64,000 bases of DNA from Candidatus Dojkabacteria bacterium (GCA_016931155.1 JAFGFJ010000006.1:314896-378895), one strand, 5' to 3'. Shown: positions 1,840 to 56,149, counted from the first letter of the stretch. Program-made: numbers and translations. Notes: generated by a model from the letters alone, not told the origin.

Positions 1840-2931
1840 CTATTCTGTGTTGTTTTCTATGTTTGTAAGTTGACCACAAGCAGCCTCAACGTCCTCTCCC
1901 ATTGTTACTCTAATTGTGGCAGGAATACCTGCTTCAGTAAGTATCTTTGCAAAACTATGTATTCTATTTCTACTACTTCGGCGAAAACTCCTGAAAGAAT
2001 ATTTATCTGGCAGAAAGCGAGAACAATTAGTCTGTTTATTTACAGTTTTTATATCATGATAAATGGTAATGGGATTGTAAGGGATGAGGTTTATGTGGGC
2101 AAGTCTTTGCCCTTTCAAAAGTGCAACTAGTTCCTGAGCGTGTTCTCCCCTGTCGTTTACATCGTGTATCATGATGTATTCGTAGCTTATTCTTTTGTTT
2201 CGAAGATCCATGTACCAGGTTGTTGCTTTTATGAGCTTATCAATAGGAAAAAGCCTGGCAATGGGCATAATTTTTTCTCTGAGCTTCTGATTTGGAGCGT
2301 GCAGTGAAATGGCAAACCTTCCTTTGAAACCATCTTTGACCAGTTTCTTGAATTGAGGAATATATCCACAGGTTGAAATTATTATTCTTCTTTTACTAAG
2401 TCCAAGTTTTGCAGGATCTGTAATAATGTCCAGTGACTTTTGAACTTCAGACAGATTAAGTAGTGGCTCGCCCATTCCCATAAAGACAACATTAGTAACC
2501 TTTTGAGGTTTTTTACAACTGAGGAGAAAACGATTGAAATATAATATCTGATCGATAATTTCCTGTGCTGAAAGATTTCCACCGAAGCCCATTTTCCCGG
2601 TTGCACAAAATATACAGCCTACGGGGCATCCAACCATACAGCTTACACAGACGGTATTCCTTTTGTCTTTATGTCTTATGAGTACTGTTTCAATTTTCTT
2701 TTTATCGCTTCTTTCAAATAAGAGCTTTATTGTTTTCGAATTTTTGGATTCAAGTTTTTTTATCTCCCTTAATGTCGAAAAGGTTATTTCTTGAGATAAT
2801 TTATTTTTTATGTCTTTTGGAAGAGTAGTGATTTCCTCAAAACTTCTGATAGGTTTCTGATAAAAGGCTTCCTCAATTTGCTTGAGTCGAAACCCGGGAA
2901 GATTATATTTATTTATGAATTTTCGAAACAT
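1840..2931 (-). CDS. rlmN: 23S rRNA (adenine2503-C2)-methyltransferase RlmN (radical SAM)
   Basis: CxxxCxxC radical-SAM cluster CPVGCIFCATG and RlmN/Cfr-like conserved blocks (GMGEPLLN, second Cys ...ISTCG). Confidence 0.85.
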   Translation of the reverse strand: MFRKFINKYNLPGFRLKQIEEAFYQKPIRSFEEITTLPKDIKNKLSQEITFSTLREIKKLESKNSKTIKLLFERSDKKKIETVLIRHKDKRNTVCVSCMVGCPVGCIFCATGKMGFGGNLSAQEIIDQILYFNRFLLSCKKPQKVTNVVFMGMGEPLLNLSEVQKSLDIITDPAKLGLSKRRIIISTCGYIPQFKKLVKDGFKGRFAISLHAPNQKLREKIMPIARLFPIDKLIKATTWYMDLRNKRISYEYIMIHDVNDRGEHAQELVALLKGQRLAHINLIPYNPITIYHDIKTVNKQTNCSRFLPDKYSFRSFRRSSRNRIHSFAKILTEAGIPATIRVTMGEDVEAACGQLTNIENNTE

Positions 2932-3154
2932 AAAGGGATTATACCCTACATTATAAAGTGCAGACAGGGTAGGAGCTGATTTATGGATTTTTTTGGGACA
3001 GAAGATGAAGGTTATTTATTTGCTTCACACTTTATTGAAAATTTCCTACCACTCTGTTACTATTACCCAGCTTTTTTGAAGTAGGATGTACAATAACCTG
3101 TGAAGAGGGTTGTTGTTTTTTTGATCAAAAATTTAAATTATATTTATAAATTTA

Positions 3155-5302
3155 ATGGCAGGTACAGATTACACATCGGTAAAAGATAAAAATCTTTACA
3201 GGAATATTGGAATTATTGCTCATATTGATGCTGGGAAAACTACTACCACTGAGCGTATTCTCTTTTTTACGGGAAAGAAGCACAAACTTGGAGAAGTTCA
3301 CGAAGGAGCTGCGGAAATGGACTTTATGGACCAGGAAAAGGAAAGAGGAATAACTATCCAGTCTGCTGCTACTACTGCTTTCTGGGAAGTTGATAATACC
3401 AGATATAGGGTAAATATTATTGATACTCCCGGGCATGTTGATTTTACAGCTGAAGTTGAGAGGTCATTGAGGGTACTTGATGGAGCGGTTGTTGTATTCG
3501 ATGGGAAGGAGGGGGTTGAACCGCAGTCAAGTAAAGTGTGGCTTCAGGCGGAAAAATATTTTGTACCAAGGCTTTGCTATATAAATAAACTTGACGCAAC
3601 TGGTGGCGATTTTTTCAAAAGCCTGGAAAGTATTCAAAATGAACTCAACAAAAATGCATTTGCGGTTCAGATTCCTGTAGGTACTGAGTCAAACTTTAAT
3701 GGGATTATAGATCTTGTTGATATGAAGGCTCATATGTATAAGGATGAGCTTGGGAAAGAGATAGAAGTATCCGATATTCCGGATGATCTTAAGATAAAGG
3801 CTGAGGAATATAGAGAAAAAATGATTGAGAAAATTGCTGATGCGGATGATGTCATTGCTGAAAAGTATCTTGGCGGGGAGGAAATATCCCGTGAAGAAAT
3901 TGTTGCGGGTATTAGAAAAGGAACTGTCTCTGGTGTGATTTTTCCGGTTTTGGCAGGATCTTCGTACAAAAATAGAGGTATTCAGCTTATGCTTGATTGT
4001 GTTTGCAGGTATCTGCCGTCTCCCCTTGAAAAGATTCAGGTAATAAAAAACGAAGAGACTGGAGAGCAGACAAAATATATTGGAGAGGTAGTTGGGAAAA
4101 ATCCAAAGACTGATGCTGATGAACACAGGAAGGCATCAAATGATGAACCTTTTTCCGGACTTGTTTTTAAAATTGCAATGGATACTCATGTGGGCTCGCT
4201 GGCCTTTATAAGAGTATATTCAGGTAAGCTTCAGGCTGGAACGTATGTGTACAATTCATCTGTCGATAAGAAAGAAAGAGTGGCTAGAATTCTTTTGATG
4301 CATGCAAATCATAGAGAGGAAGCACCTGAGATAAGTGCTGGAGATATTGCGGCTCTTGTAGGGATTAAAGAATCCTATACTGGAAATACAATTTGTGATG
4401 AAAATAATCCTGTTGTTCTCGAGAGTATCAAGTTCTCTGATCCTGTTGTCTCGCTTGCGATTGAGCCAAAAACAAAATCAGATCAGGAGAAAATGGGTAC
4501 AGCTCTTAATAAGCTTTCGCAGGAGGATCCTACTTTTAAAATTTCGACAAATGAAGAAACGGGGCAGACAATTATTTCTGGGATGGGAGAACTACATCTG
4601 GAAGTAAAAGTGGATATTATGAGAAGGGACTACAATGTGGATGTTAATACAGGTAAACCGCAAGTAGCTTACAGAGAGACCGTAGAAGGAGAAATTGAAC
4701 ATAGAGAGCTTCTCAAAAAGCAGACAGGAGGTGCGGGACAATTTGCCGATCTCACTATCATTCTTTCTCCGAATGAGCGAGGGAAGGGGTATGAATTTAT
4801 TGATAAAATCAAGGGTGGAGCGATTCCAAGAGAATTTATTCCTTCAGTTGATAAAGGAATTCAACAGGCACTTTCTACAGGGGTAATCGGAGGATTTCCG
4901 GTAGTGGATGTGAAAGTTGAGCTGGTTGATGGATCCTACCACGAGGTTGACTCAAATACCGATACATTCAAAATTGCAGCGAACAGAGGTTTCAAGGAAG
5001 CAATGAAGAAGGCTTCTCCTATTCTACTTGAACCAATTATGAAGCTTGTAGTGAATACTCCGGATGAATTTGCAGGAGACATAACAGGAGCGGTTGCTTC
5101 AAAGAGAGGACAGATTAAGAAAATGGAATCAAAAGGTAATTACCAGGAAATCGAAGCAGAGGTTCCTCTTGGTAATATGTTTGGCTGGACGGGGGACATG
5201 AGGTCTATGACTAAAGGAAAAGCGAATAGTGTGATGGAATTTTCGCATTACCAGAAAGTACCTGAAAATCTTGTGGATCAACTACTCGGAAAGAGCGAGT
5301 AG
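3155..5302 (+). CDS. fusA: Elongation factor G
   Basis: GIIAHIDAGKTTTTERILFFTG... G-domain and full-length EF-G domains II-V. Confidence 0.95.
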   Translation: MAGTDYTSVKDKNLYRNIGIIAHIDAGKTTTTERILFFTGKKHKLGEVHEGAAEMDFMDQEKERGITIQSAATTAFWEVDNTRYRVNIIDTPGHVDFTAEVERSLRVLDGAVVVFDGKEGVEPQSSKVWLQAEKYFVPRLCYINKLDATGGDFFKSLESIQNELNKNAFAVQIPVGTESNFNGIIDLVDMKAHMYKDELGKEIEVSDIPDDLKIKAEEYREKMIEKIADADDVIAEKYLGGEEISREEIVAGIRKGTVSGVIFPVLAGSSYKNRGIQLMLDCVCRYLPSPLEKIQVIKNEETGEQTKYIGEVVGKNPKTDADEHRKASNDEPFSGLVFKIAMDTHVGSLAFIRVYSGKLQAGTYVYNSSVDKKERVARILLMHANHREEAPEISAGDIAALVGIKESYTGNTICDENNPVVLESIKFSDPVVSLAIEPKTKSDQEKMGTALNKLSQEDPTFKISTNEETGQTIISGMGELHLEVKVDIMRRDYNVDVNTGKPQVAYRETVEGEIEHRELLKKQTGGAGQFADLTIILSPNERGKGYEFIDKIKGGAIPREFIPSVDKGIQQALSTGVIGGFPVVDVKVELVDGSYHEVDSNTDTFKIAANRGFKEAMKKASPILLEPIMKLVVNTPDEFAGDITGAVASKRGQIKKMESKGNYQEIEAEVPLGNMFGWTGDMRSMTKGKANSVMEFSHYQKVPENLVDQLLGKSE

Positions 5303-7039: not shown

Positions 7040-7046
7040 GAAACTG

Positions 7047-7081
7047 AAGTTGAGCTGGAAAAAACCAGCTCAACTTTTTTA
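7047..7081 (+). terminator. Terminator/attenuator hairpin between tuf and rpsJ (GTTGAGCTGG-aaaaaa-CCAGCTCAAC + T6)
   Basis: Perfect 10-bp stem plus T-tract, starting 8 nt after the tuf stop and ending 20 nt before the S10 ATG. Confidence 0.6.
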
Positions 7082-7100
7082 TGTTGCTCTTTTTAAATTA

Positions 7101-7400
7101 ATGCAAAGGATAAGAATAAAAATAAAAGGATATGATTATCGTGTAGTTGATAAGGCTGCTCAGCAGATTATTGAAACTGCTGTTAGAACTGGGGCAAAGA
7201 CAGCTGGTCCAATTCCTTTGCCTACGAAGTTGAGGAGATGGGCTGTTCTGCGTTCTCCTCATGTTGATTCCAAATCGAAAGAGCACTTTGAGATGAGGAT
7301 TCACAAGAGGCTTGTGGATATAATTGAGCCAACAGGCCAGACGATTGATTCTTTAACGCATTTGCAACTTGCGGCGGGGGTTGGTATTGAAATAAAGTAA
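7101..7400 (+). CDS. rpsJ: 30S ribosomal protein S10
   Basis: [27 protein letters not shown]... aligns with E. coli S10 from Met1. The ORF-track start at 7050 lies inside the terminator hairpin. Confidence 0.9.
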
Positions 7401-7479
7401 CAAACTTTTTGAACTGACCTTGGTTAATACTGTTCTTTTCAGGATAAGTTACCAGGACTCTGAAACTTCAGGGATCTTG

Positions 7480-7504
7480 GGCTTCTCAAAAAGAAGCCTT
7501 TTTT
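7480..7504 (+). terminator. Second terminator-like hairpin (GGCTTCT-caaaa-AGAAGCC + T6) between rpsJ and rplC
   Basis: 7-bp perfect stem, 5-nt loop, T6; ends 8 nt before the rplC ATG. Possible attenuator. Confidence 0.5.
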
Positions 7505-7512
7505 AATAGAAA

Positions 7513-8082
7513 ATGAAAAAAACTTTAATTACAGAAAAAAAAGAGATGACGAGCCTATTCGATGGAGATGGGAAGTTTGTATCTGTTACTGTACTTGAGG
7601 TAGGGGATAATGTTGTTTTTGGGACAAGAATTGAAGAAAAGGATGGTTATAGTGCTTTTATTATTAAAGATGAGAAATCTGGATTGGTAAAAGAGGTGAG
7701 AGTGGAAAGTGATGAGGAAGTAAAGGATATGAAGGTGGGGGATAAATTGGAGATAGACTTTAGTGAGGGAGATACGGTTTCTGCAACGGGAGTAACAAAA
7801 GGAAAAGGTTTTCAAGGAGTAGTCAAAAGATGGGGATTTAAGGGTGGACCAAAAACTCATGGACAATCAGATAGACAAAGACATCCTGGCTCTATTGGAG
7901 GTGGGACTACGCCGGGAAGAGTTTATAAAGGGAAGAAAATGGCGGGAAGGATGGGTGCAGTTACAAGAACGATCAGAGGATTGAGGATTATAAAAATAGA
8001 TAAGGAGAACAATTTAATAGCGGTAAAAGGTGCGATACCTGGAGGTAAAGGCGGATTGGTTTTGCTTAAGTCGACCAAATAA
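7513..8082 (+). CDS. rplC: 50S ribosomal protein L3
   Basis: Homology by eye to L3 (KGKGFQGVVKRWGF...HGQSDRQRHPGSIG). Confidence 0.92.
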   Translation: MKKTLITEKKEMTSLFDGDGKFVSVTVLEVGDNVVFGTRIEEKDGYSAFIIKDEKSGLVKEVRVESDEEVKDMKVGDKLEIDFSEGDTVSATGVTKGKGFQGVVKRWGFKGGPKTHGQSDRQRHPGSIGGGTTPGRVYKGKKMAGRMGAVTRTIRGLRIIKIDKENNLIAVKGAIPGGKGGLVLLKSTK

Positions 8083-8084
8083 CA

Positions 8085-8609
8085 ATGAAAGCTTTGAAAT
8101 TAGTGCCCTATTTGGTACTTGTTTCTCTCATATCAGTAGGAGTGTACTTACTGATAGGAATAACAAATCAGGAGAAATTGCAAAGTTATTCTGACTTTAT
8201 TGAAACAAGTAGTGGCAAAGTACTTGAAGGGATAAACAAACAGAGTGAACAGATAAACAGAATTGGAAATATTTCGGATATTGAAGAAGGAGTAATAACG
8301 GATAATGAGGATATTTCAAGTAAGTTTAAGACTTTACTTGAAGCAGAAAAAAAAGCCTGGCAGGAATTAAAAAAGCCTGAAGGGTCTAAGGAAACTCAGA
8401 AACAAATGGAAGAGTTTTTTAAGGGTGCAGAAGAAAGCAATAAGCAGTTTGATGAGGCAATGATGGAAATAAAAATACTGAAAAAAGAAGATGAGCTTCT
8501 AAGTACAATTAAGGGCTACAATGAGAAAGTAACAAAATTTGCAGAAACATACGAAGAGCTTATTGAAAACTTAAATAATTATATTGATGAAAGTAACTTT
8601 ATACGATAA
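8085..8609 (+). CDS. Hypothetical membrane-anchored coiled-coil protein inserted between rplC and rplD
   Basis: 174-aa ORF starting 3 nt after the L3 stop and overlapping the L4 start by 26 nt. It has an N-terminal TM helix followed by a K/E-rich, coiled-coil-like region; no family recognised. Confidence 0.55.
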   Translation: MKALKLVPYLVLVSLISVGVYLLIGITNQEKLQSYSDFIETSSGKVLEGINKQSEQINRIGNISDIEEGVITDNEDISSKFKTLLEAEKKAWQELKKPEGSKETQKQMEEFFKGAEESNKQFDEAMMEIKILKKEDELLSTIKGYNEKVTKFAETYEELIENLNNYIDESNFIR

Positions 8610-9402
8610 AACAGGAAAAAAGACTGAGAAAAAGATTGAGCTTGACTCTGCGATTTTTGGGGCAAAGGTTAATAAAAAACTATTAAGCCAGGCTGTCTAT
8701 ATATATCTTTCAAATCAAAGGACAGCCAATCCCCAGACTAAAGACAGGGGTGAAGTTAGTGGTGGAGGAAGAAAGCCATGGAAGCAGAAAGGGACGGGAA
8801 GAGCCAGACACGGTTCAACAAGAAGTCCGATCTGGAGAGGAGGAGGAGTTACTTTTGGTCCCACAAATCAAAAGAATTATAAAAAGACTATGCTTAAGAA
8901 AATGAAAAGAGCGGCAATTAGGTCAGCTTTTAGTTATCAGACTGAAGAGAAAAAAGTGTTGGTAATGGAAAAACCCGATTTCAAAGAAGGAGCACTTACA
9001 AAACAAGTCTTGAAAATTTTAAATAATTTGAGAATTGATAAGAAAGTGTTGTTTGTTCAGGGAGATATTGACCAAAACTTTGTTAAAGCAGTGAGTAATC
9101 TCAAAACTGTTTTGGTAAAACCGGTAAACGAACTTAACACTTATTCAGTATTAAATACACAATGGCTGATTTTTACAGATGAAAGTTTGGGAAAGGTTAG
9201 CGAGTTTTGGGGAGCAGAAAAAGGAAAAACTTTAAATACAGAGAAAGGGGAAGAGAAGAAGCTCAGCTCTGTTCAAAGAGATTTAGTAAAAAAGGAAACA
9301 AAAAGAGTCAAGGATGAGAGTGAGAAAAAGCCTTTGAAAAAGGTTGCAAAAAAATCGACTATAAAGAAAGTTAAAATAATAAAATCAAAAACAAAGAAAT
9401 AA
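8584..9402 (+). CDS. rplD: 50S ribosomal protein L4 with Lys-rich C-terminal extension
   Basis: GGGRKPWKQKGTGRARHGS motif; ~65-aa basic tail. Confidence 0.92.
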   Translation: MMKVTLYDKTGKKTEKKIELDSAIFGAKVNKKLLSQAVYIYLSNQRTANPQTKDRGEVSGGGRKPWKQKGTGRARHGSTRSPIWRGGGVTFGPTNQKNYKKTMLKKMKRAAIRSAFSYQTEEKKVLVMEKPDFKEGALTKQVLKILNNLRIDKKVLFVQGDIDQNFVKAVSNLKTVLVKPVNELNTYSVLNTQWLIFTDESLGKVSEFWGAEKGKTLNTEKGEEKKLSSVQRDLVKKETKRVKDESEKKPLKKVAKKSTIKKVKIIKSKTKK

Positions 9403-12465: not shown

Positions 12466-12753
12466 ATGAAACCAAACGAACTTAGAAAATTTAGTAAAAA
12501 GGAGCTTGAGGAAAGGTTGGTTAAAAAAGCTGAAGAATTAGAGAGCAAGAAGTTTGAAGTCAGGATGAAAAAAGATAATGATTATGCAAGCTTGAAATTT
12601 TTGAAAAAAGAATTGGCAAGAATAAATACAATTATAAAGGCAGGTTCGTTTGCCATTGATGATATAAAGGATAAGGTGGAAAAGAAGACTGTGAAGAAAG
12701 AAACGAAGAAAAAAAACAGTATTGTGAGGAAGGATAAAGAACCTGATAAGTAA
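12466..12753 (+). CDS. rpmC: 50S ribosomal protein L29 with C-terminal extension
   Basis: MKPNELRKFSKKELEERLVKKAEEL... L29 family; ~30-aa extra tail. Confidence 0.85.
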   Translation: MKPNELRKFSKKELEERLVKKAEELESKKFEVRMKKDNDYASLKFLKKELARINTIIKAGSFAIDDIKDKVEKKTVKKETKKKNSIVRKDKEPDK

Positions 12754-16028: not shown

Positions 16029-16616
16029 ATGGCAGAGGAACAAAAACAAAAAGCGAAAGTAGGTACAGTAGAACAGACTTCTCCCGGAGAAGTTAAGGAA
16101 AGGCTTGAACGTATAAAGGTGAGAAGAGTTCAGAGGAAATCTGATGCAAGAGGTAACAAGAGGGGAAGAGATAAAGACAGAGATGAGCTTGATACAAGAA
16201 TCATTAATATAAGGAGGGTAACAAGAGTATATAAAGGTGGGAAAAGGATGAGGCTGAGTGCCTTTGTTGTGGTTGGAGACAGAAAAGGTAGTATTGGACT
16301 GGGTGTGGGAAAAGGTTCTGATGTTAGATCCGCTGAGGCTAAGGCGATAAACTATGCAAGAAAACACATGGTAAAAATCAGTCTTAAAGGAAATACACTA
16401 CCTCATCAGATCATTGGGAAAAGCGGAGCGGCAGAAGTTTTTATGAAGCCTGCTGCCCCTGGAACTGGAGTTATTGCAGGCAGTGCTGCCAGGGCTGTTG
16501 TGGAAGTTGCAGGTGTTAAAGATATTCTTACTAAAGTGCTTGGATCTGATAACAGTATAAATAATGCATATGCGACACTTGATGGACTTACTAAACTTAG
16601 ACTCACTCGAAGCTAA
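16029..16616 (+). CDS. rpsE: 30S ribosomal protein S5 with basic N-terminal extension
   Basis: RVTRVYKGGKRMRLSAFVVVGDRKGSIGLGVGKGSDV S5 dsRBD signature. Confidence 0.93.
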   Translation: MAEEQKQKAKVGTVEQTSPGEVKERLERIKVRRVQRKSDARGNKRGRDKDRDELDTRIINIRRVTRVYKGGKRMRLSAFVVVGDRKGSIGLGVGKGSDVRSAEAKAINYARKHMVKISLKGNTLPHQIIGKSGAAEVFMKPAAPGTGVIAGSAARAVVEVAGVKDILTKVLGSDNSINNAYATLDGLTKLRLTRS

Positions 16617-17068
16617 TGCTTAACAATTTGATCTCGCCAAAAACAAAAAAGAAAAGCAAAATAATCGGAAGAGGTTACGGTTCCGGGGTTGGTGGTCATA
16701 CTGTTGGTAAAGGTCAGAAAGGTCAGAAGTCGAGGTCTGGGTATTCAAAACCTAGACCGGGTTTCGAGGGGGGGCAGATGCCTCTTTCAAGAAGACTTCC
16801 AAAACTTAGAGGTTTCAAGCGGGGGTATTTTAAGTCAAAGTCACACAATACTGTTCTCAATCTTTCTGATCTAGAAGGGCTTGGACTTACAAGGGTTTCT
16901 TTTGAATCCTTGAAAGAAAAGGGATTATTAGGTGGATTTTCAAAAAAACAGGAAGTAAAAATATTATCTGGGGGAAAAATAAGTAGAAAAGTGGAAATCG
17001 TTGGAATTAAAATTTCAAAAAAAGCCCAGGAAAAGGTAGAAAAGGCTGGGGGAAAAGTTACTGCTTAA
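16616..17068 (+). CDS. rplO: 50S ribosomal protein L15 (immediately follows S5; no L30 gene)
   Basis: GRGYGSGVGGHTVGKGQKGQKSRSG L15 signature; the start overlaps the S5 stop (TAATG). Confidence 0.92.
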   Translation: MLNNLISPKTKKKSKIIGRGYGSGVGGHTVGKGQKGQKSRSGYSKPRPGFEGGQMPLSRRLPKLRGFKRGYFKSKSHNTVLNLSDLEGLGLTRVSFESLKEKGLLGGFSKKQEVKILSGGKISRKVEIVGIKISKKAQEKVEKAGGKVTA

Positions 17069-17078
17069 TTTTTTAATA

Positions 17079-18551
17079 ATGCTGGAAACACAAAAAAAAA
17101 GCTCAGGAATGCCTGCAAGTATTTTTAGTCGCACAGTAAGAAAAGTCTCAGGAGAGACTAAGAAGAGTGGCATTTTTACTAAATTCCAAAGGACGTTTGC
17201 AAATAAAGATATAAGGAATCGTTTCCTTTTCACTATGTTGATGGTTTTGGTATTCAGATTATTGTCTGCTGTTCCACTTCCAGGAATTGACCCTGCAGTT
17301 TTTAAAGAATTTTTTCAAGGTACTCCTTTCAGTAATATCTTTACCATAGTTACTGGAGGAAGGCTTGATAATCCGTCTATTGTAGCAATTGGGCTGGCTT
17401 CTTATATTAATGCCTCAATTATGATTCAACTGTTTACAACTGTTATTCCCTCTCTTGAGGAAATGTCAAAAGAAGGGGAAAGAGGAAAGCAAAAATTGAA
17501 TCAGATAACCAGAGTATTGACTGTTCCACTGACAGTGCTGCAGTCCGTAGTGATTTATACTATTTTGAAAAACAGTGCTGGTATTTCAAATCTCGTCGCG
17601 GAGTCATCGGTTTTGGATGTAGTTACTATGATTACGACACTGACTGCCGGGACGATGCTCCTGATGTGGATATCTGAGATTATTTCAGAAAGTGGGATCG
17701 GAAATGGCTCGTCAATAATAATTTCCGCTGGTGTTCTTGCAGTTATCCCGAGTTTTATTTCACAGGATTTCCAAAGTGTTGAACTCAATTTTAAATTTCT
17801 TTTAGAAGGAAAACTTGAAGTTCTATGGAGCTCAAATATGCTTTTGATCTATGCGATAATTGTGGGGCTTGTTGTTTTACTATTAGGTATAGTTTTTATG
17901 TCGGAGGCAACAAGAAAACTATCTATCCAGTATGCAAGAAGAGTAAGGGGTGGTGTGGCGGGATTTCAAAATACTTTTCTTCCGATTAAGCTTAACCAGG
18001 CAGGGGTGATGCCTGTAATATTTGCATCATCAATACTCATTCTGCCGCAGATACTTTCTCAGTTTGTGGTCAGTTCCTTTGAATCGGGTAAGTTTTATGA
18101 TATTGCCAATGCAATAGGAAATTCCTTTCTTTCAGACTATGGATCATTTGGATACAATTTAACCTACTTCTTTGCAATTATTGGGTTTACTTTCTTTTAT
18201 ACTTTTGTTGTTCTAAACCCGAATGATACAGCGGACAACCTGAAGAAAAGTGGAGGCTTCATACCTGGGATTAGACCTGGGACTTCAACTGCCAGTTATA
18301 TTACGAAAGTTATGATCAGATTGACTATTGTCGGGGGTATTTTCCTCGGGGCAATAGCTCTTGCTCCTTCTCTTATTAATCAATTTGCGACTAATCAGTT
18401 CCTTGGAGAAGCTGCAAATTATGGGAGATCGACTCTTTTTTCCGGAATTGGGGGTACCAGTCTTTTGATTTTGGTAGGAGTAATACTTGATACAAAACGA
18501 AAGATTGAATCTATGGCAGTTACACGTAGCTACGAGCATTACAAAGACTAA
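17079..18551 (+). CDS. secY: Preprotein translocase subunit SecY (N-terminal ~35-aa extension)
   Basis: FRLLSAVPLPGIDPAVF and 10-TM architecture typical of SecY. Confidence 0.92.
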   Translation: MLETQKKSSGMPASIFSRTVRKVSGETKKSGIFTKFQRTFANKDIRNRFLFTMLMVLVFRLLSAVPLPGIDPAVFKEFFQGTPFSNIFTIVTGGRLDNPSIVAIGLASYINASIMIQLFTTVIPSLEEMSKEGERGKQKLNQITRVLTVPLTVLQSVVIYTILKNSAGISNLVAESSVLDVVTMITTLTAGTMLLMWISEIISESGIGNGSSIIISAGVLAVIPSFISQDFQSVELNFKFLLEGKLEVLWSSNMLLIYAIIVGLVVLLLGIVFMSEATRKLSIQYARRVRGGVAGFQNTFLPIKLNQAGVMPVIFASSILILPQILSQFVVSSFESGKFYDIANAIGNSFLSDYGSFGYNLTYFFAIIGFTFFYTFVVLNPNDTADNLKKSGGFIPGIRPGTSTASYITKVMIRLTIVGGIFLGAIALAPSLINQFATNQFLGEAANYGRSTLFSGIGGTSLLILVGVILDTKRKIESMAVTRSYEHYKD

Positions 18552-18554
18552 ATA

Positions 18555-19304
18555 TTGGGAATTACTATTAAAAACAAAAAAGAGATAGATTTAATGCGGG
18601 TAGGTGGGAAAATGCTTGGGGATATTGTTGAAGAACTTGGGAGGATGGTAAAGGCGGGAATTTCATCATGGGATATTGAAAAAAAATCCCAGGCTCTTTT
18701 ACAGCATTATAAGGTTAAGCCGGCGTTTCTGAATTATCTTGGCTATCCCTGTGTCTCATGTGTTGGATTAAATGACACAGCTGTACATGGGATTCCAAGT
18801 AAAGATGAAATTTTGAATGAGGGAGATATTGTTAGTATTGATATGGGACTGATTTATCAGGGGATGTATTTGGATCATGCTGTTACTGTCCCTGTCGGAA
18901 AAATCTCCAGTGAGAGTGCGAAGCTCATTAATGTGACTAGAGATGCGATGAAAGCTGGAATAAATCAGGCAAAAGAGGGAAATACGGTTGGAGATATAAG
19001 TCATGCTATTCAGACTACTGCGGAGCTTGCAGGGTTTTCTGTAATAAGGCAAATGGTAGGACATGGAGTAGGTTACCAGGTGCACGAACCTCCTCAAATT
19101 CCCTGCTTTGGAGAAAAAGGGACTGGAGAAATGCTTGAAGAAGGTATGACTCTTGCAATTGAGGCAATGGTAAATGCAGGTGGTGCAGAAATATTGATAT
19201 TGGAGGATGGTTGGACGACAAAAACGCAGGACGGAAAGAATTCTGCAATTTTTGAACATACTATAGTAGTTGGGGAGAAAAAGTCGGAGATTTTGACCGA
19301 GTAG
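18555..19304 (+). CDS. map: Methionine aminopeptidase type I
   Basis: pita-bread fold blocks (DIVSIDMG, HGVGYQVHEPPQI, ALAIE metal-ligand-like motifs). Confidence 0.88.
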   Translation: MGITIKNKKEIDLMRVGGKMLGDIVEELGRMVKAGISSWDIEKKSQALLQHYKVKPAFLNYLGYPCVSCVGLNDTAVHGIPSKDEILNEGDIVSIDMGLIYQGMYLDHAVTVPVGKISSESAKLINVTRDAMKAGINQAKEGNTVGDISHAIQTTAELAGFSVIRQMVGHGVGYQVHEPPQIPCFGEKGTGEMLEEGMTLAIEAMVNAGGAEILILEDGWTTKTQDGKNSAIFEHTIVVGEKKSEILTE

Positions 19305-34204: not shown

Positions 34205-34233
34205 TTCTTGTTTGTGCGTGCTATAATTATTTC

Positions 34234-34626
34234 GGTCTAGTCAGAACGGTCGCTAAGCGTGAGCTTAGAGGAAAGTCCGAACTCCTCTTGGCACAATAGT
34301 CAGGACAAGGTACCTTGGAGACAAGGCAGGGAGTGATCTCTGGGATTAGAGCAACAGAAAGTAAGGAGCCTGCGAATTGCAGGCGATCTTGAAAGGGTGC
34401 CTCCGGGTTTTTCTGGGGGGCGTACATGAAATTTCATGTATGACGTGTAAGAGACCACCGGTCACGATAGTAATATCGAGATGCTGGTAATCCCTATCGG
34501 GAGCAAGATCAAAGTGTAGATCGCAAAGTGTTTGTTCTTTTGATTAATCAGAACAAATACTGCTAGAGAAATGACCGTCATTCTGGTGTTGCCAGAAAGA
34601 ACAGAATTCGGCTTATTGACTAGACC
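34234..34626 (+). ncRNA. rnpB: RNase P RNA, bacterial type (M1 RNA)
   Basis: GAGGAAAGTCCGAACTCC (P4 5' strand) and ACAGAATTCGGCTTA (P4 3' strand) covary with the E. coli GGG/CCC pair. The P1 helix GGTCTAGTCA...TGACTAGACC closes the ~393-nt molecule. The ORF-track ORF 34227-34427 (-) is spurious. Confidence 0.85.
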
Positions 34627-34734
34627 ATTTTTTCAACCACTTCAGGAGTATTTCCATTTGGGTGCATAATACTTCCTGTATAGAAACCATTATTTCTTGA
34701 AAATTTCAATTTACAGTGGGAACACATAGATACA

Positions 34735-54020: not shown

Positions 54021-54095
54021 TGGAGCGGGCAACGGGAATCGAACCCGTATCATCAGTTTGGAAAACTGACATAATAACCTTTATACGATGCCCGC
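54021..54095 (-). tRNA. tRNA-Gly (anticodon UCC), CCA encoded
   Basis: Reverse complement GCGGGCATCGTATAAAGGTTATTATGTCAGTTTTCCAAACTGATGATACGGGTTCGATTCCCGTTGCCCGCTCCA folds as a cloverleaf. 7-bp acceptor stem; anticodon stem TCAGT/ACTGA with loop TTTCCAA, so anticodon UCC; T-loop GGTTCGATTCC; discriminator U and G1:C72 typical of tRNA-Gly. Confidence 0.8.
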
Positions 54096-54240: not shown

Positions 54241-54312
54241 TGAGTAGCTATCTCCGAAGCACTTCAAGTCTCTGTGCATGAGTAGCTCTTCCCGCAGCAC
54301 TTCAAATTCCTG
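54241..54312. repeat. Imperfect 34-bp tandem direct repeat spanning the 3' end/stop codon of the downstream hypothetical gene
   Basis: tgagtagctatctccgaagcacttcaagtctctg followed by tgagtagctcttcccgcagcacttcaaattcctg. The second copy encodes the C-terminal ...LKCCGKSYSC; the first lies just beyond the stop. Confidence 0.7.
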
Positions 54313-55538
54313 TCGTAAGTAGACGGGTCACCGTTCTTTACGTATTTTAAGACCTTTCCGCAGATGTCACATCTCACCGGGTCGGGTCTGTCAGGGGTTG
54401 GTTGAGGTTCAAACCCCGGATTCAATATCGAGTTTACTCTTCCGAATGTGCTGAACTTTTCCGATATACCGCAGGCGCTCATCACATAACCTTCTTGTCT
54501 CATAAGTCTGGCTTGAGCATATCTATCCATTTTTTGAAAATCTGAGAAACCTCCATCTTGATCGTAATTAATCCCTGTTTCTAGCTTCATTACATCATGT
54601 ATATATTTTCTAAATCCGAACTGCAGGACTGCCATTGTTTCATTGATGAAGGAAAGTTCTTTAGAAATATTTTCCCCTTTATTCAATTTTGCGGCCGTCG
54701 CCGTAATCAATGTTCTAAATTCCTCCCTGACTCTTTCCCAAACAAACGTCTTTGCATAAGCCTCAATTAATCTAATTTTCATTTCTTCGAGACCTTTTGT
54801 TCTTTGTTCTATAAAATCGGTTATGATTCTGAGTTTGTTGTCATCAAAGAAGCCTGATGATGCCATTATGCTTAAATCTGAAAGATTATTGCTGTCTGTA
54901 TTAATTGCCAATTCATTCAGTAGTTCCTCATAATCAAGAGTCGAAGTTGCGGGTAGCCATTTTTGTATAACTTTCTCGGTACCATTTTCATTTATAAATA
55001 AAAAGATGGTGTCGTTCCCCAGATAACCTCTTTTTTTTGCTTCTTCGGTAAGTGGCGGGCTTGGGCTGAATTCTACAAAATTTCTTTTATCTCCCATCTG
55101 TCTTGCTCTTCTGAGTTTTTCATAATTGCTCAGATTTATTGTGTTTCTTAAGATTTCAAATTCAGGAATTTGCCCGCTCGCATTATTTATTGCTTCTCTA
55201 TAGATTTCGTCAAGTGTTCTGTTTCCTGTTGCGAGCTTCCACGGTAAATTGCTCTTATCCCAAGGGAGGCTGTATTCATATATTGCAGTAGTTTCTGCGA
55301 TGGGATGCTCAACGATCTGGGTGTATATGTCGGTAAGGCTTTCTGTCAATGCAATGTTCAACAATGCCTCCCTTTCCTCTCCTCCAGCAGATTGGATAGC
55401 TTTTAGAGCCTGAAGTACATAGTTTATTGAGTTTGAGTATCTGTTTGAATACTGCGCCCTGATAGAATCCATACTTAAATCTGCTTTATTGATCGCAAAT
55501 CTCGACGGTTGTATTTCCTGTATGGCTGTTTCGCTCAT
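54264..55538 (-). CDS. Hypothetical cytoplasmic protein with C-terminal Cys cluster (CDICGKV...CCGKSYSC)
   Basis: 424-aa ORF, no recognised family. Confidence 0.5.
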   Translation of the reverse strand: MSETAIQEIQPSRFAINKADLSMDSIRAQYSNRYSNSINYVLQALKAIQSAGGEEREALLNIALTESLTDIYTQIVEHPIAETTAIYEYSLPWDKSNLPWKLATGNRTLDEIYREAINNASGQIPEFEILRNTINLSNYEKLRRARQMGDKRNFVEFSPSPPLTEEAKKRGYLGNDTIFLFINENGTEKVIQKWLPATSTLDYEELLNELAINTDSNNLSDLSIMASSGFFDDNKLRIITDFIEQRTKGLEEMKIRLIEAYAKTFVWERVREEFRTLITATAAKLNKGENISKELSFINETMAVLQFGFRKYIHDVMKLETGINYDQDGGFSDFQKMDRYAQARLMRQEGYVMSACGISEKFSTFGRVNSILNPGFEPQPTPDRPDPVRCDICGKVLKYVKNGDPSTYDRNLKCCGKSYSCTET

Positions 55539-56149
55539 TTCATTTCAGAAACGAGCAGTGTTGAAGAATTAATTTTCATGGCTTTCTGCTCGGAAAGATA
55601 AAATAATCTTGGCTGGTTTTCTGGCTTTTCCAGTGATGGAATTACAGTTGCGGCACAGCAGCGGTATTTCACCGCTTTTCCCATTTAATCCCGAAAAGAG
55701 AACCTGAAATATACTAGAGTAAAAATTATAATTTTGCAAGAAGTGTAGGTCTGATGTATTTGATGTACAACTTCAAGACCTATGTAGCAACTGAGACTCT
55801 ACGGGCTGTACAGGTTCATGAACATATGCAACAGCCATAGTAGAATACGTTGATGTTTCAAATTATTAATGATTCAAACAAAACGGTTGTTGTATAACGA
55901 GTTTAATCTTTAATATGTTTCATCACACGATAGAGAAGGCGAGTAAAATCAGCTTATTTTTTTCATTAACTGTAGAGACTCTTACAGAGAGCCAAGGATA
56001 AACTAGATGCTTGTTATGTATTATATGTAAGACAAGCAAACTCTCAATGAAGGAAGTAGTAGAGACCACGGCTAAGTTTTGCTCATCATTATTGTTGATC
56101 TTTTGCCAAATGAATTGTACTCTGTATTAGTCAGATTCCTGCCCTAATT

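Follow-up and report, generated by a model that had tools for sequence, protein, structure and literature searches.

The window analysed here, a 64-kb stretch of DNA from a Candidatus Dojkabacteria bacterium, carries the standard fusA-tuf-S10-spc-alpha cluster, in which L29, S17, L5, S8, SecY, map, S13 and L17 were confirmed and secY is located at 17079-18551. The sole gene without a known family found in this ribosomal array lies between rplC and rplD and is called gene X in the following. Its product is identical to the NCBI hypothetical protein JW796_03070 from Candidatus Dojkabacteria bacterium. The features of the locus are listed below.

7101-7400, plus strand: rpsJ (S10), 99 aa; Pfam Ribosomal_S10, 9.5e-35
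7418-7505, plus strand: structured leader upstream of rplC (terminator scan, MFE folds, motif search, RNAalifold)
7513-8082, plus strand: rplC (uL3), 189 aa; Pfam Ribosomal_L3, 1.5e-20
8080-8087, plus strand: L3 stop/X start junction, TAA-CA-ATG, read from the sequence (relatives: -4 to +16 nt)
8085-8609, plus strand: gene X (JW796_03070; "hypothetical protein" at NCBI), ORF of 174 aa with an ATG start
8100-8165, plus strand: transmembrane (TM) anchor of X, residues 6-27 (LVPYLVLVSLISVGVYLLIGIT), from hydropathy, with a conserved MK.LK n-region before it
8166-8594, plus strand: predicted four-helix bundle of X, residues 28-170; AlphaFold2 pLDDT 88, pTM 0.78
8587-8609, plus strand: overlap of the X 3' end with the rplD 5' end, 23 nt, in different frames, read from the sequence
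8587-9402, plus strand: rplD (uL4), 271 aa; Pfam Ribosomal_L4, 4.6e-62, residues 17-206

The original prediction, made from the DNA sequence, had placed an ORF of 174 aa at 8085-8609 between rplC and rplD, in agreement with the ORF and with the Pfam matches of its neighbours to L3 and L4. It was also right in describing both junctions as tight, and two of its figures required correction. The ORF had been said to start 3 nt past the L3 stop; with TAA at 8080-8082 and the ATG of X at 8085, the spacer measures 2 nt. The overlap with rplD had been given as 26 nt, which is the size that the L4 start of the ORF list (TTG 8584) would produce; the L4 N-terminus common to relatives (MKV.LYDK.GKK) begins at ATG 8587, and the overlap therefore amounts to 23 nt. 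The product of the window rplD gene is identical to an L4 of Dojkabacteria at NCBI. In the other frames of 8085-8609 no ORF exceeds 54 aa, and X itself matches no ribosomal family, which upholds the statement that no alternative reading of this stretch yields a ribosomal protein.

For rpsJ, the true start is probably ATG 7101 rather than the TTG 7050 of the ORF list. S10 proteins of relatives have 99 aa, as does that of the window when started at ATG 7101, and TTG 7050 is overlapped by a strong terminator-like hairpin of 13 bp (7046-7083) which the terminator scan located directly after the tuf stop.

The spacer between S10 and L3 is unusually long, measuring 112 nt in the window and reaching 202 nt in relatives. 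Within it lie a stem with an internal-loop motif (GGTTAATACTG...ATAAGTTACC) at 7418-7457 and a terminator-like hairpin with a T-run at 7479-7505, 8 nt before the ATG of rplC. MFE folds were computed for the spacers of seven Dojkabacteria loci. The motif, whose consensus reads GGYYAAUACUG, a variable covarying hairpin and AUAAGUURCC, is present in the window and in three relatives (L087, 3230-3345; L089, 2081-2180; L091, 1736-1820); L085 and L082 have a variant form, and the spacer of L084 contains just the hairpin and the T-run. RNAalifold on six sequences gave 16 pairs, six of them with compensatory changes, and the spacer had no Rfam match even at E<=1. To judge from its folding and covariation, the region looks like a candidate for an undescribed ribosomal-protein leader or attenuator, under whose control X, lying downstream, would also come.

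Several other traits of the window deserve to be recorded. From 1 to about 34.2 kb, the plus strand carries every large gene. The secY gene is directly followed by map, with no adk between them (17079-19304), and an ORF of 195 aa (16029-16616) abuts one of 150 aa (16616-17068) with no L30 gene in between; by position, we take these two ORFs to be S5 and L15, respectively. Adjacency of S5 and L15 without L30 is a hallmark of CPR bacteria. The window L4 has a lysine-rich C-terminal extension of about 65 aa (about 9205-9399), and Dojkabacteria uL4 proteins of 283-301 aa (L091, 3001-3906; P0007; P0021; P0032; P0121) have a fused region resembling the C-terminal domain of RNA polymerase alpha (PF03118), with PF14520 in addition in P0121. 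L29 of the window (12466-12753) was matched weakly (29.9 bits), and in the related locus L081 the place of L29, between L16 and S17, is taken by a gene of 139 aa (4777-5196) with no Pfam match; L29 seems to be diverging fast in the clade of these two loci. At gathering level, Rfam identified bacterial RNase P RNA class A (34233-34631, plus strand, 134 bits), one tRNA (54024-54095, minus strand) and a cobalamin riboswitch (55594-55722, minus strand, 60 bits). For a reduced CPR genome, this B12 riboswitch is a possible sign of a cobalamin-dependent or transport gene located at about 54264-55538 (minus strand).

Conservation and history of gene X

Codon usage, conservation, synteny and dN/dS identify X as a genuine protein-coding gene under purifying selection. 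A codon model was trained on 35 further genes of the window. It gives X +0.32 log2-odds per codon in the proposed frame and -0.24 to -0.53 in the other five; bona fide genes score 0.23-0.40. The GC3 of X (0.29) equals that of its neighbours. The closest relative, L081, which was found via its L4 homologue P0003 (69% identical), has a gene of 175 aa in the L3-L4 slot whose product aligns with X without gaps across all 174 residues (38% identity, 63% similarity); the flanking L3 and L4 proteins of this locus are 74% and 69% identical to those of the window. Between L081 and L090, the closest pair for which DNA is available (65% amino acid identity), dN/dS is about 0.15 and identities at the three codon positions are 0.73/0.81/0.48, third positions being the most diverged. 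Synonymous sites are saturated in most other pairs, yet frame and length are kept. A lack of conservation among close relatives together with codon usage unlike that of translated genes had been named at the outset as the observation that would speak against the gene; instead, the slot proved to be conserved and the codons to be gene-like in frame.

Homologues of 173-184 aa were found in the same L3-L4 slot of seven other Dojkabacteria contigs, with an eighth being probable. An exhaustive HMMER search of 1.84 billion protein representatives returned five representatives of 50%-identity clusters, including the window protein, all of them 173-177 aa long, and a repeat protein as a single spurious hit. 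The word-indexed protein search retrieved nothing but X itself when a single X sequence was used as the query, and a profile retrieved three further members, one of them new beyond the HMMER set. Two scans of metagenome contigs with sub-alignments of the X family gave no matches, and X has no paralogue within the 64-kb window.

Synteny was read in the window, in L081, L090, L087, L089 and L088, and in one JGI contig. X lies directly after rplC in every member with readable context, and directly before rplD wherever the contig extends downstream. In the seven sequenced loci, including the window, the spacer from L3 to X ranges from -4 to +16 nt and that from X to L4 from -23 to +3 nt; among the X-L4 junctions of the relatives there are ATGA overlaps in three loci, an overlap of -20 and spacers of +2 and +3. 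The eighth member, assessed by gene calls alone, starts 11 nt after L3. More divergent occupants of the slot were found in two loci. L091 belongs to a lineage whose L4 has the C-terminal domain resembling that of RNA polymerase alpha, and its 184-aa gene is a divergent X homologue according to hhalign (probability 96.9%, E 2e-10, 150 aligned columns). The slot of L085 (NPIE01002906.1) holds two TM-bearing ORFs, of which orf2 (153 aa, 3543-4004) aligns end to end with a profile of eight X sequences at 15.9 bits; of 2000 TM-preserving shuffles, one scored as high. By this statistical link orf2 is probably a remote X homologue; orf1 (105 aa, 3245-3562) has no similarity to X. Comparison of S10 operons among CPR relatives and a search for remote homologues, both of which had been proposed as checks, thus recovered a homologous insert at the same slot in Dojkabacteria and a small protein family that includes L091. 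Judged by these searches, the X family is specific to Dojkabacteria, new and taxonomically restricted.

In three Dojkabacteria loci (L082, L084 and L086) X is missing and L3 abuts L4. A simple NJ tree of six proteins (L3+L4+L23+L2+S19+S3), whose key nodes have 67-75% support, recovered the Dojkabacteria loci as monophyletic (300/300 bootstraps). The four X-bearing loci of the close family group together in it (202/300), and the X-less loci are monophyletic (300/300) within a group that they share with the X-bearing L091 and L085 (226/300). The most parsimonious history suggested by this topology is a single ancient insertion in Dojkabacteria followed by one loss, so that X would have entered the rplC-rplD junction early in the history of this lineage. 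The insert was correctly placed inside the S10 operon by the original prediction, and what appeared as a peculiarity of one genome can now be described as widespread in Dojkabacteria and probably ancient. Since one clade lacks X in the slot, the gene is dispensable there, unless it has been relocated elsewhere in those genomes. Conservation of the slot could reflect the inertia of a tightly coupled operon and not selection for co-expression.

Few bacterial gene arrays are as rigid as the S10 operon, whose gene order is used to anchor the phylogeny and the binning of uncultured lineages. We sampled 80 diverse bacterial loci around L4, obtained by an L4 scan of genome contigs in which the universal KPWKQKGT motif dominated and no Dojkabacteria were returned, as a background. 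The gap between L3 and L4 spans -37 to +127 nt in 79 of the 80, and the premise that the order S10-L3-L4-L23-L2 is almost universally uninterrupted thus held at the junction tested, L3-L4. The sole exception, the Parcubacteria contig L071, resembles the X locus in having a gap of about 0.5 kb at this position in a CPR genome (515 nt; 2701-3995), but it contains a 78-aa ORF with a lipoprotein-like signal (LLISC) that is not homologous to X and, being located on the opposite strand, is not co-translated with L3 and L4. L3 of this contig extends at its C-terminus into a K- and E-rich tail of about 50 aa. Literature searches turned up neither an L3-L4 insertion nor the X family, and a survey of CPR ribosomes does not mention gene X; the insertions reported in the searched literature sit between operons and not at the L3-L4 junction.

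The predicted membrane protein

The N-terminal TM helix of the original prediction was confirmed at residues 6-27, which have a Kyte-Doolittle value of 2.45 over 19 residues. Hydropathy revealed no second hydrophobic segment in any member of the family. Gly19 within the TM segment is nearly invariant across members, as is K5 ahead of it, and K2 is invariant; family members contain no cysteines. The remainder of the protein had been described as K/E-rich and coiled-coil-like. Its helical, K/E-rich character was borne out (K and E make up 27% of X, yet the protein is net acidic), whereas an extended coiled coil was rejected because the AlphaFold2 model, obtained with a six-sequence alignment, is a compact bundle. 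Structure prediction had been recommended as a further check, and the model it delivered is confident (pLDDT 88). Its helices comprise residues 7-58 (the TM segment running into H1), 68-94 (H2), 102-131 (H3) and 135-170 (H4), and the chain ends at residue 174, a few residues past helix 4. X is predicted with good confidence to be a single-pass, membrane-anchored, compact four-helix bundle. Residues Y35, S42, N58, L132 and Y145 are invariant, and Q53, I57, N119 and N146 nearly so. Based on conservation and hydrophobic periodicity, the conserved polar residues S42, Q53, N119 and Y145/N146 occupy heptad core positions, where they may form a buried polar layer or a pocket.

The part of the protein that follows the TM segment has a pI of 4.1-5.0 and a net charge of -5 to -21 in the members of the family (pI 4.6 for the bundle of the window protein), as opposed to a pI of 9.7-10.2 for S10, L3 and L4. 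Ribosomal-protein profiles of Pfam and NCBIfam did not match X above any curated cutoff. A novel ribosomal protein in the strict sense was therefore rejected on the basis of the TM helix, of the acidic remainder compared with basic S10, L3 and L4, and of the missing profile match; the classification of X as non-ribosomal is sustained by its lack of a family match and by an acidity unlike that of these neighbours.

The orientation of X in the membrane was assessed from charge. The numbers of K+R flanking the TM segment are 2 and 1-3 on its two sides, and the C-terminal flank has a net charge of -2 to +1 before the strongly acidic domain begins. Since the K+R counts are similar on both sides, the topology call is a weak one; we consider it rather likely that the N-terminus is inside and the C-terminus outside. 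The N-terminus would then be cytoplasmic and the bundle would be directed outward on the cell surface.

Expression and possible roles

Judged by the geometry of the locus, X would be co-transcribed with the S10 operon, downstream of the conserved leader/terminator before rplC, and translated by termination-reinitiation coupled to L3. The 3' end of X would in turn be coupled to the L4 start or overlap it, such that L4 initiation would depend on ribosomes finishing X. If co-transcription and coupling apply, X would be made whenever L3 and L4 are, and in amounts of a comparable order of magnitude. The original prediction took the arrangement to imply translational coupling: the geometry is indeed tight in every locus, and coupling itself is what we infer from it. 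A Shine-Dalgarno-like AGGAG was found at just one of the 38 gene starts of the window (between 1443 and 33644). In a genome nearly devoid of Shine-Dalgarno sites, the lack of one before X is normal. The sequence around the starts in the window is rich in A/T, and many genes touch or overlap their neighbours. These features suggest Shine-Dalgarno-independent initiation and extensive coupling in this genome.

With moderate confidence, we interpret X as a lineage-specific passenger gene for a membrane and probably cell-surface protein that would be both co-transcribed and translationally coupled with L3 and L4. Its product would most likely be an abundant envelope or surface protein, for example a module for binding or scaffolding, and may form dimers or work together with a partner membrane protein. 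It would benefit from the constitutive, growth-linked expression of a ribosomal operon in a similar way to secY in spc.

A narrower form of the surface-protein interpretation casts X as an extracytoplasmic accessory of export or of the envelope, that is, a translocon partner similar to YfgM or PpiD, or a ligand-binding co-sensor that would signal via a separate membrane protein. Such a role would be in line with the architecture of a type II anchor plus a helical ectodomain, with the TM glycine and the buried conserved polar residues, which suggest a partner or a pocket, and with the presence of secY in the same gene array; moreover, the best TM-scores of the model were obtained with periplasmic sensor four-helix bundles. 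However, such bundles easily arise by convergence, X has neither a second TM segment nor an output domain nor a candidate partner gene next to it, and it shares no sequence similarity with 4HB_MCP, TarH, YfgM or any other family. We thus regard this narrower assignment as plausible in outline and, on balance, unlikely.

Alternatively, the bundle could be cytoplasmic and linked to the ribosome, either as a membrane tether for ribosomes or SecYEG or as an acidic chaperone or escort of nascent uL3 and uL4, and stoichiometric co-expression from the L3-L4 slot would then be the very point of its location. The indecisive topology prediction leaves room for this arrangement, and the strictly conserved position with coupling geometry on both sides across deep divergence would be expected of it, as would an acidic helical domain (pI 4.1-5.0) encoded beside two proteins with a pI of about 10. 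Yeast has dedicated acidic helical chaperones of this kind, Rrb1 for uL3 and Acl4 for uL4. By contrast, the conserved basic N-terminus before the TM segment favours an outward-facing C-terminus, a membrane anchor is unexpected in an escort of ribosomal proteins, and X has no similarity to any ribosome-associated family. Furthermore, X is missing from the slot in a Dojkabacteria clade with normal L3 and L4, and it evolves much faster than its neighbours (38% versus 69-74% identity). We consider a ribosome-linked bundle improbable, and give equally little credence to the corresponding proposal that X is a Dojkabacteria-specific membrane factor whose very function lies in being made stoichiometrically and in coupled fashion with uL3 and uL4. 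If it were true that X is associated with the ribosome or the translocon, the S10 operon of this lineage would encode a new, lineage-specific component of the translation machinery, which could tether ribosomes or SecYEG in ultra-small cells or capture basic nascent uL3 and uL4.

That X is non-functional, be it an artefact of annotation, an open frame arisen by chance in AT-rich spacer DNA or a selfish or mobile sequence inserted recently, is next to impossible: its annotation merely as a hypothetical protein, the lack of a family match and a helical K/E/N-rich composition that readily arises from AT-rich DNA (GC 0.32) stand against conservation and selection, namely frame, length (173-184 aa) and architecture kept in at least eight contigs despite saturated synonymous sites, a dN/dS of 0.15, codon log-odds that are positive in the X frame alone and a confident AlphaFold model, and a recent mobile insertion is further rejected by a GC3 equal to that of the neighbours, by vertical inheritance that tracks the ribosomal-protein tree and by the abutment on rplC and overlap with rplD, which leave no space for accompanying genes.

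Gene X has several implications. Its location at the L3-L4 junction and its retention across a candidate phylum indicate that even the rigid S10 core can accept a lineage-specific gene. It may serve as a simple synteny marker for subclades of Dojkabacteria, and it points to an envelope protein, probably an abundant one, in organisms whose surface biology and attachment to hosts are little characterised. Because the L4 start overlaps X, the coupling of L4 synthesis would be altered, and X together with the leader/terminator upstream of rplC offers a tractable locus for studying ribosomal-protein regulation in CPR bacteria.

Comparison with known systems

Sequence-profile searches with Pfam, NCBIfam, PHROG, PADLOC and PDB gave no consistent or above-threshold match for the X family, all hits being to helical or coiled-coil sequences. 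The best sub-threshold matches (Pfam E 0.014; NCBIfam E 0.018) were to unrelated helical families, and those to JetC and LmuB in PADLOC were weak and compositional. A search of the PDB with Foldseek returned exclusively four-helix bundles, all with E>0.01, among them designed bundles, OspC and sensor or chemoreceptor domains. TM-scores normalised to the target were 0.6-0.78, with 4k0d at 0.78 and the ligand-binding domains of PcaY, Vc1313 and Tar within this range; designed bundles score as well as sensor domains. Given so generic a fold and such E-values, the structural matches convey nothing specific about function. The 4HB_MCP/TarH domains and the histidine-kinase sensor 4k0d share with X a TM segment that runs straight into helix 1 and an antiparallel bundle of about 140 residues. 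Unlike the 4HB_MCP/TarH sensors, however, X lacks both a TM segment past helix 4 and a cytoplasmic module of the HAMP, kinase or MCP type, and both PF12729 and PF02203 were absent from the Pfam scans of all X members at E<=0.1.

A single N-terminal TM segment followed by a helical domain of 100-150 residues is also found in DUF948, DUF4446 and the Rz-like i-spanins of phages. Membership in DUF948 or DUF4446 was rejected because the matches concern single members of the family and lie below the gathering threshold (23.2 bits versus a cutoff of 37.2 for DUF948; 18.5 bits versus 27.4 for DUF4446). Matches to Rz-like PHROGs (E 0.005-0.04) were likewise below threshold, inconsistent across the X family and driven by the TM segment and the first helix. 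LemA (PF04011) is another protein with an N-terminal TM segment and a helical bundle; it was dismissed as PF04011 occurs neither among the Pfam matches of any X member nor among the top 50 Foldseek matches to the PDB. An SMC-like "chromosome segregation ATPase", the JGI name for P0125, does not fit a protein of 173-184 aa with a compact bundle and no ATPase domain.

With respect to genome organization, X has the attributes of an embedded passenger gene: it is encoded on the same strand as its ribosomal neighbours, is separated from them by spacers of a few nucleotides or by overlaps on both sides, and has a conserved position. The closest parallel is provided by secY and secE, which are likewise membrane-protein genes packed on the same strand among ribosomal genes at a position conserved over long evolution. 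In contrast to X, which is restricted to Dojkabacteria, matches no known family, is located inside the S10 operon at L3-L4 and has been lost from this position in one clade, secY is universal and essential, has a known function and is found towards the end of spc. While secY is thus a precedent for a membrane-protein gene in a ribosomal operon, the X family itself is new.
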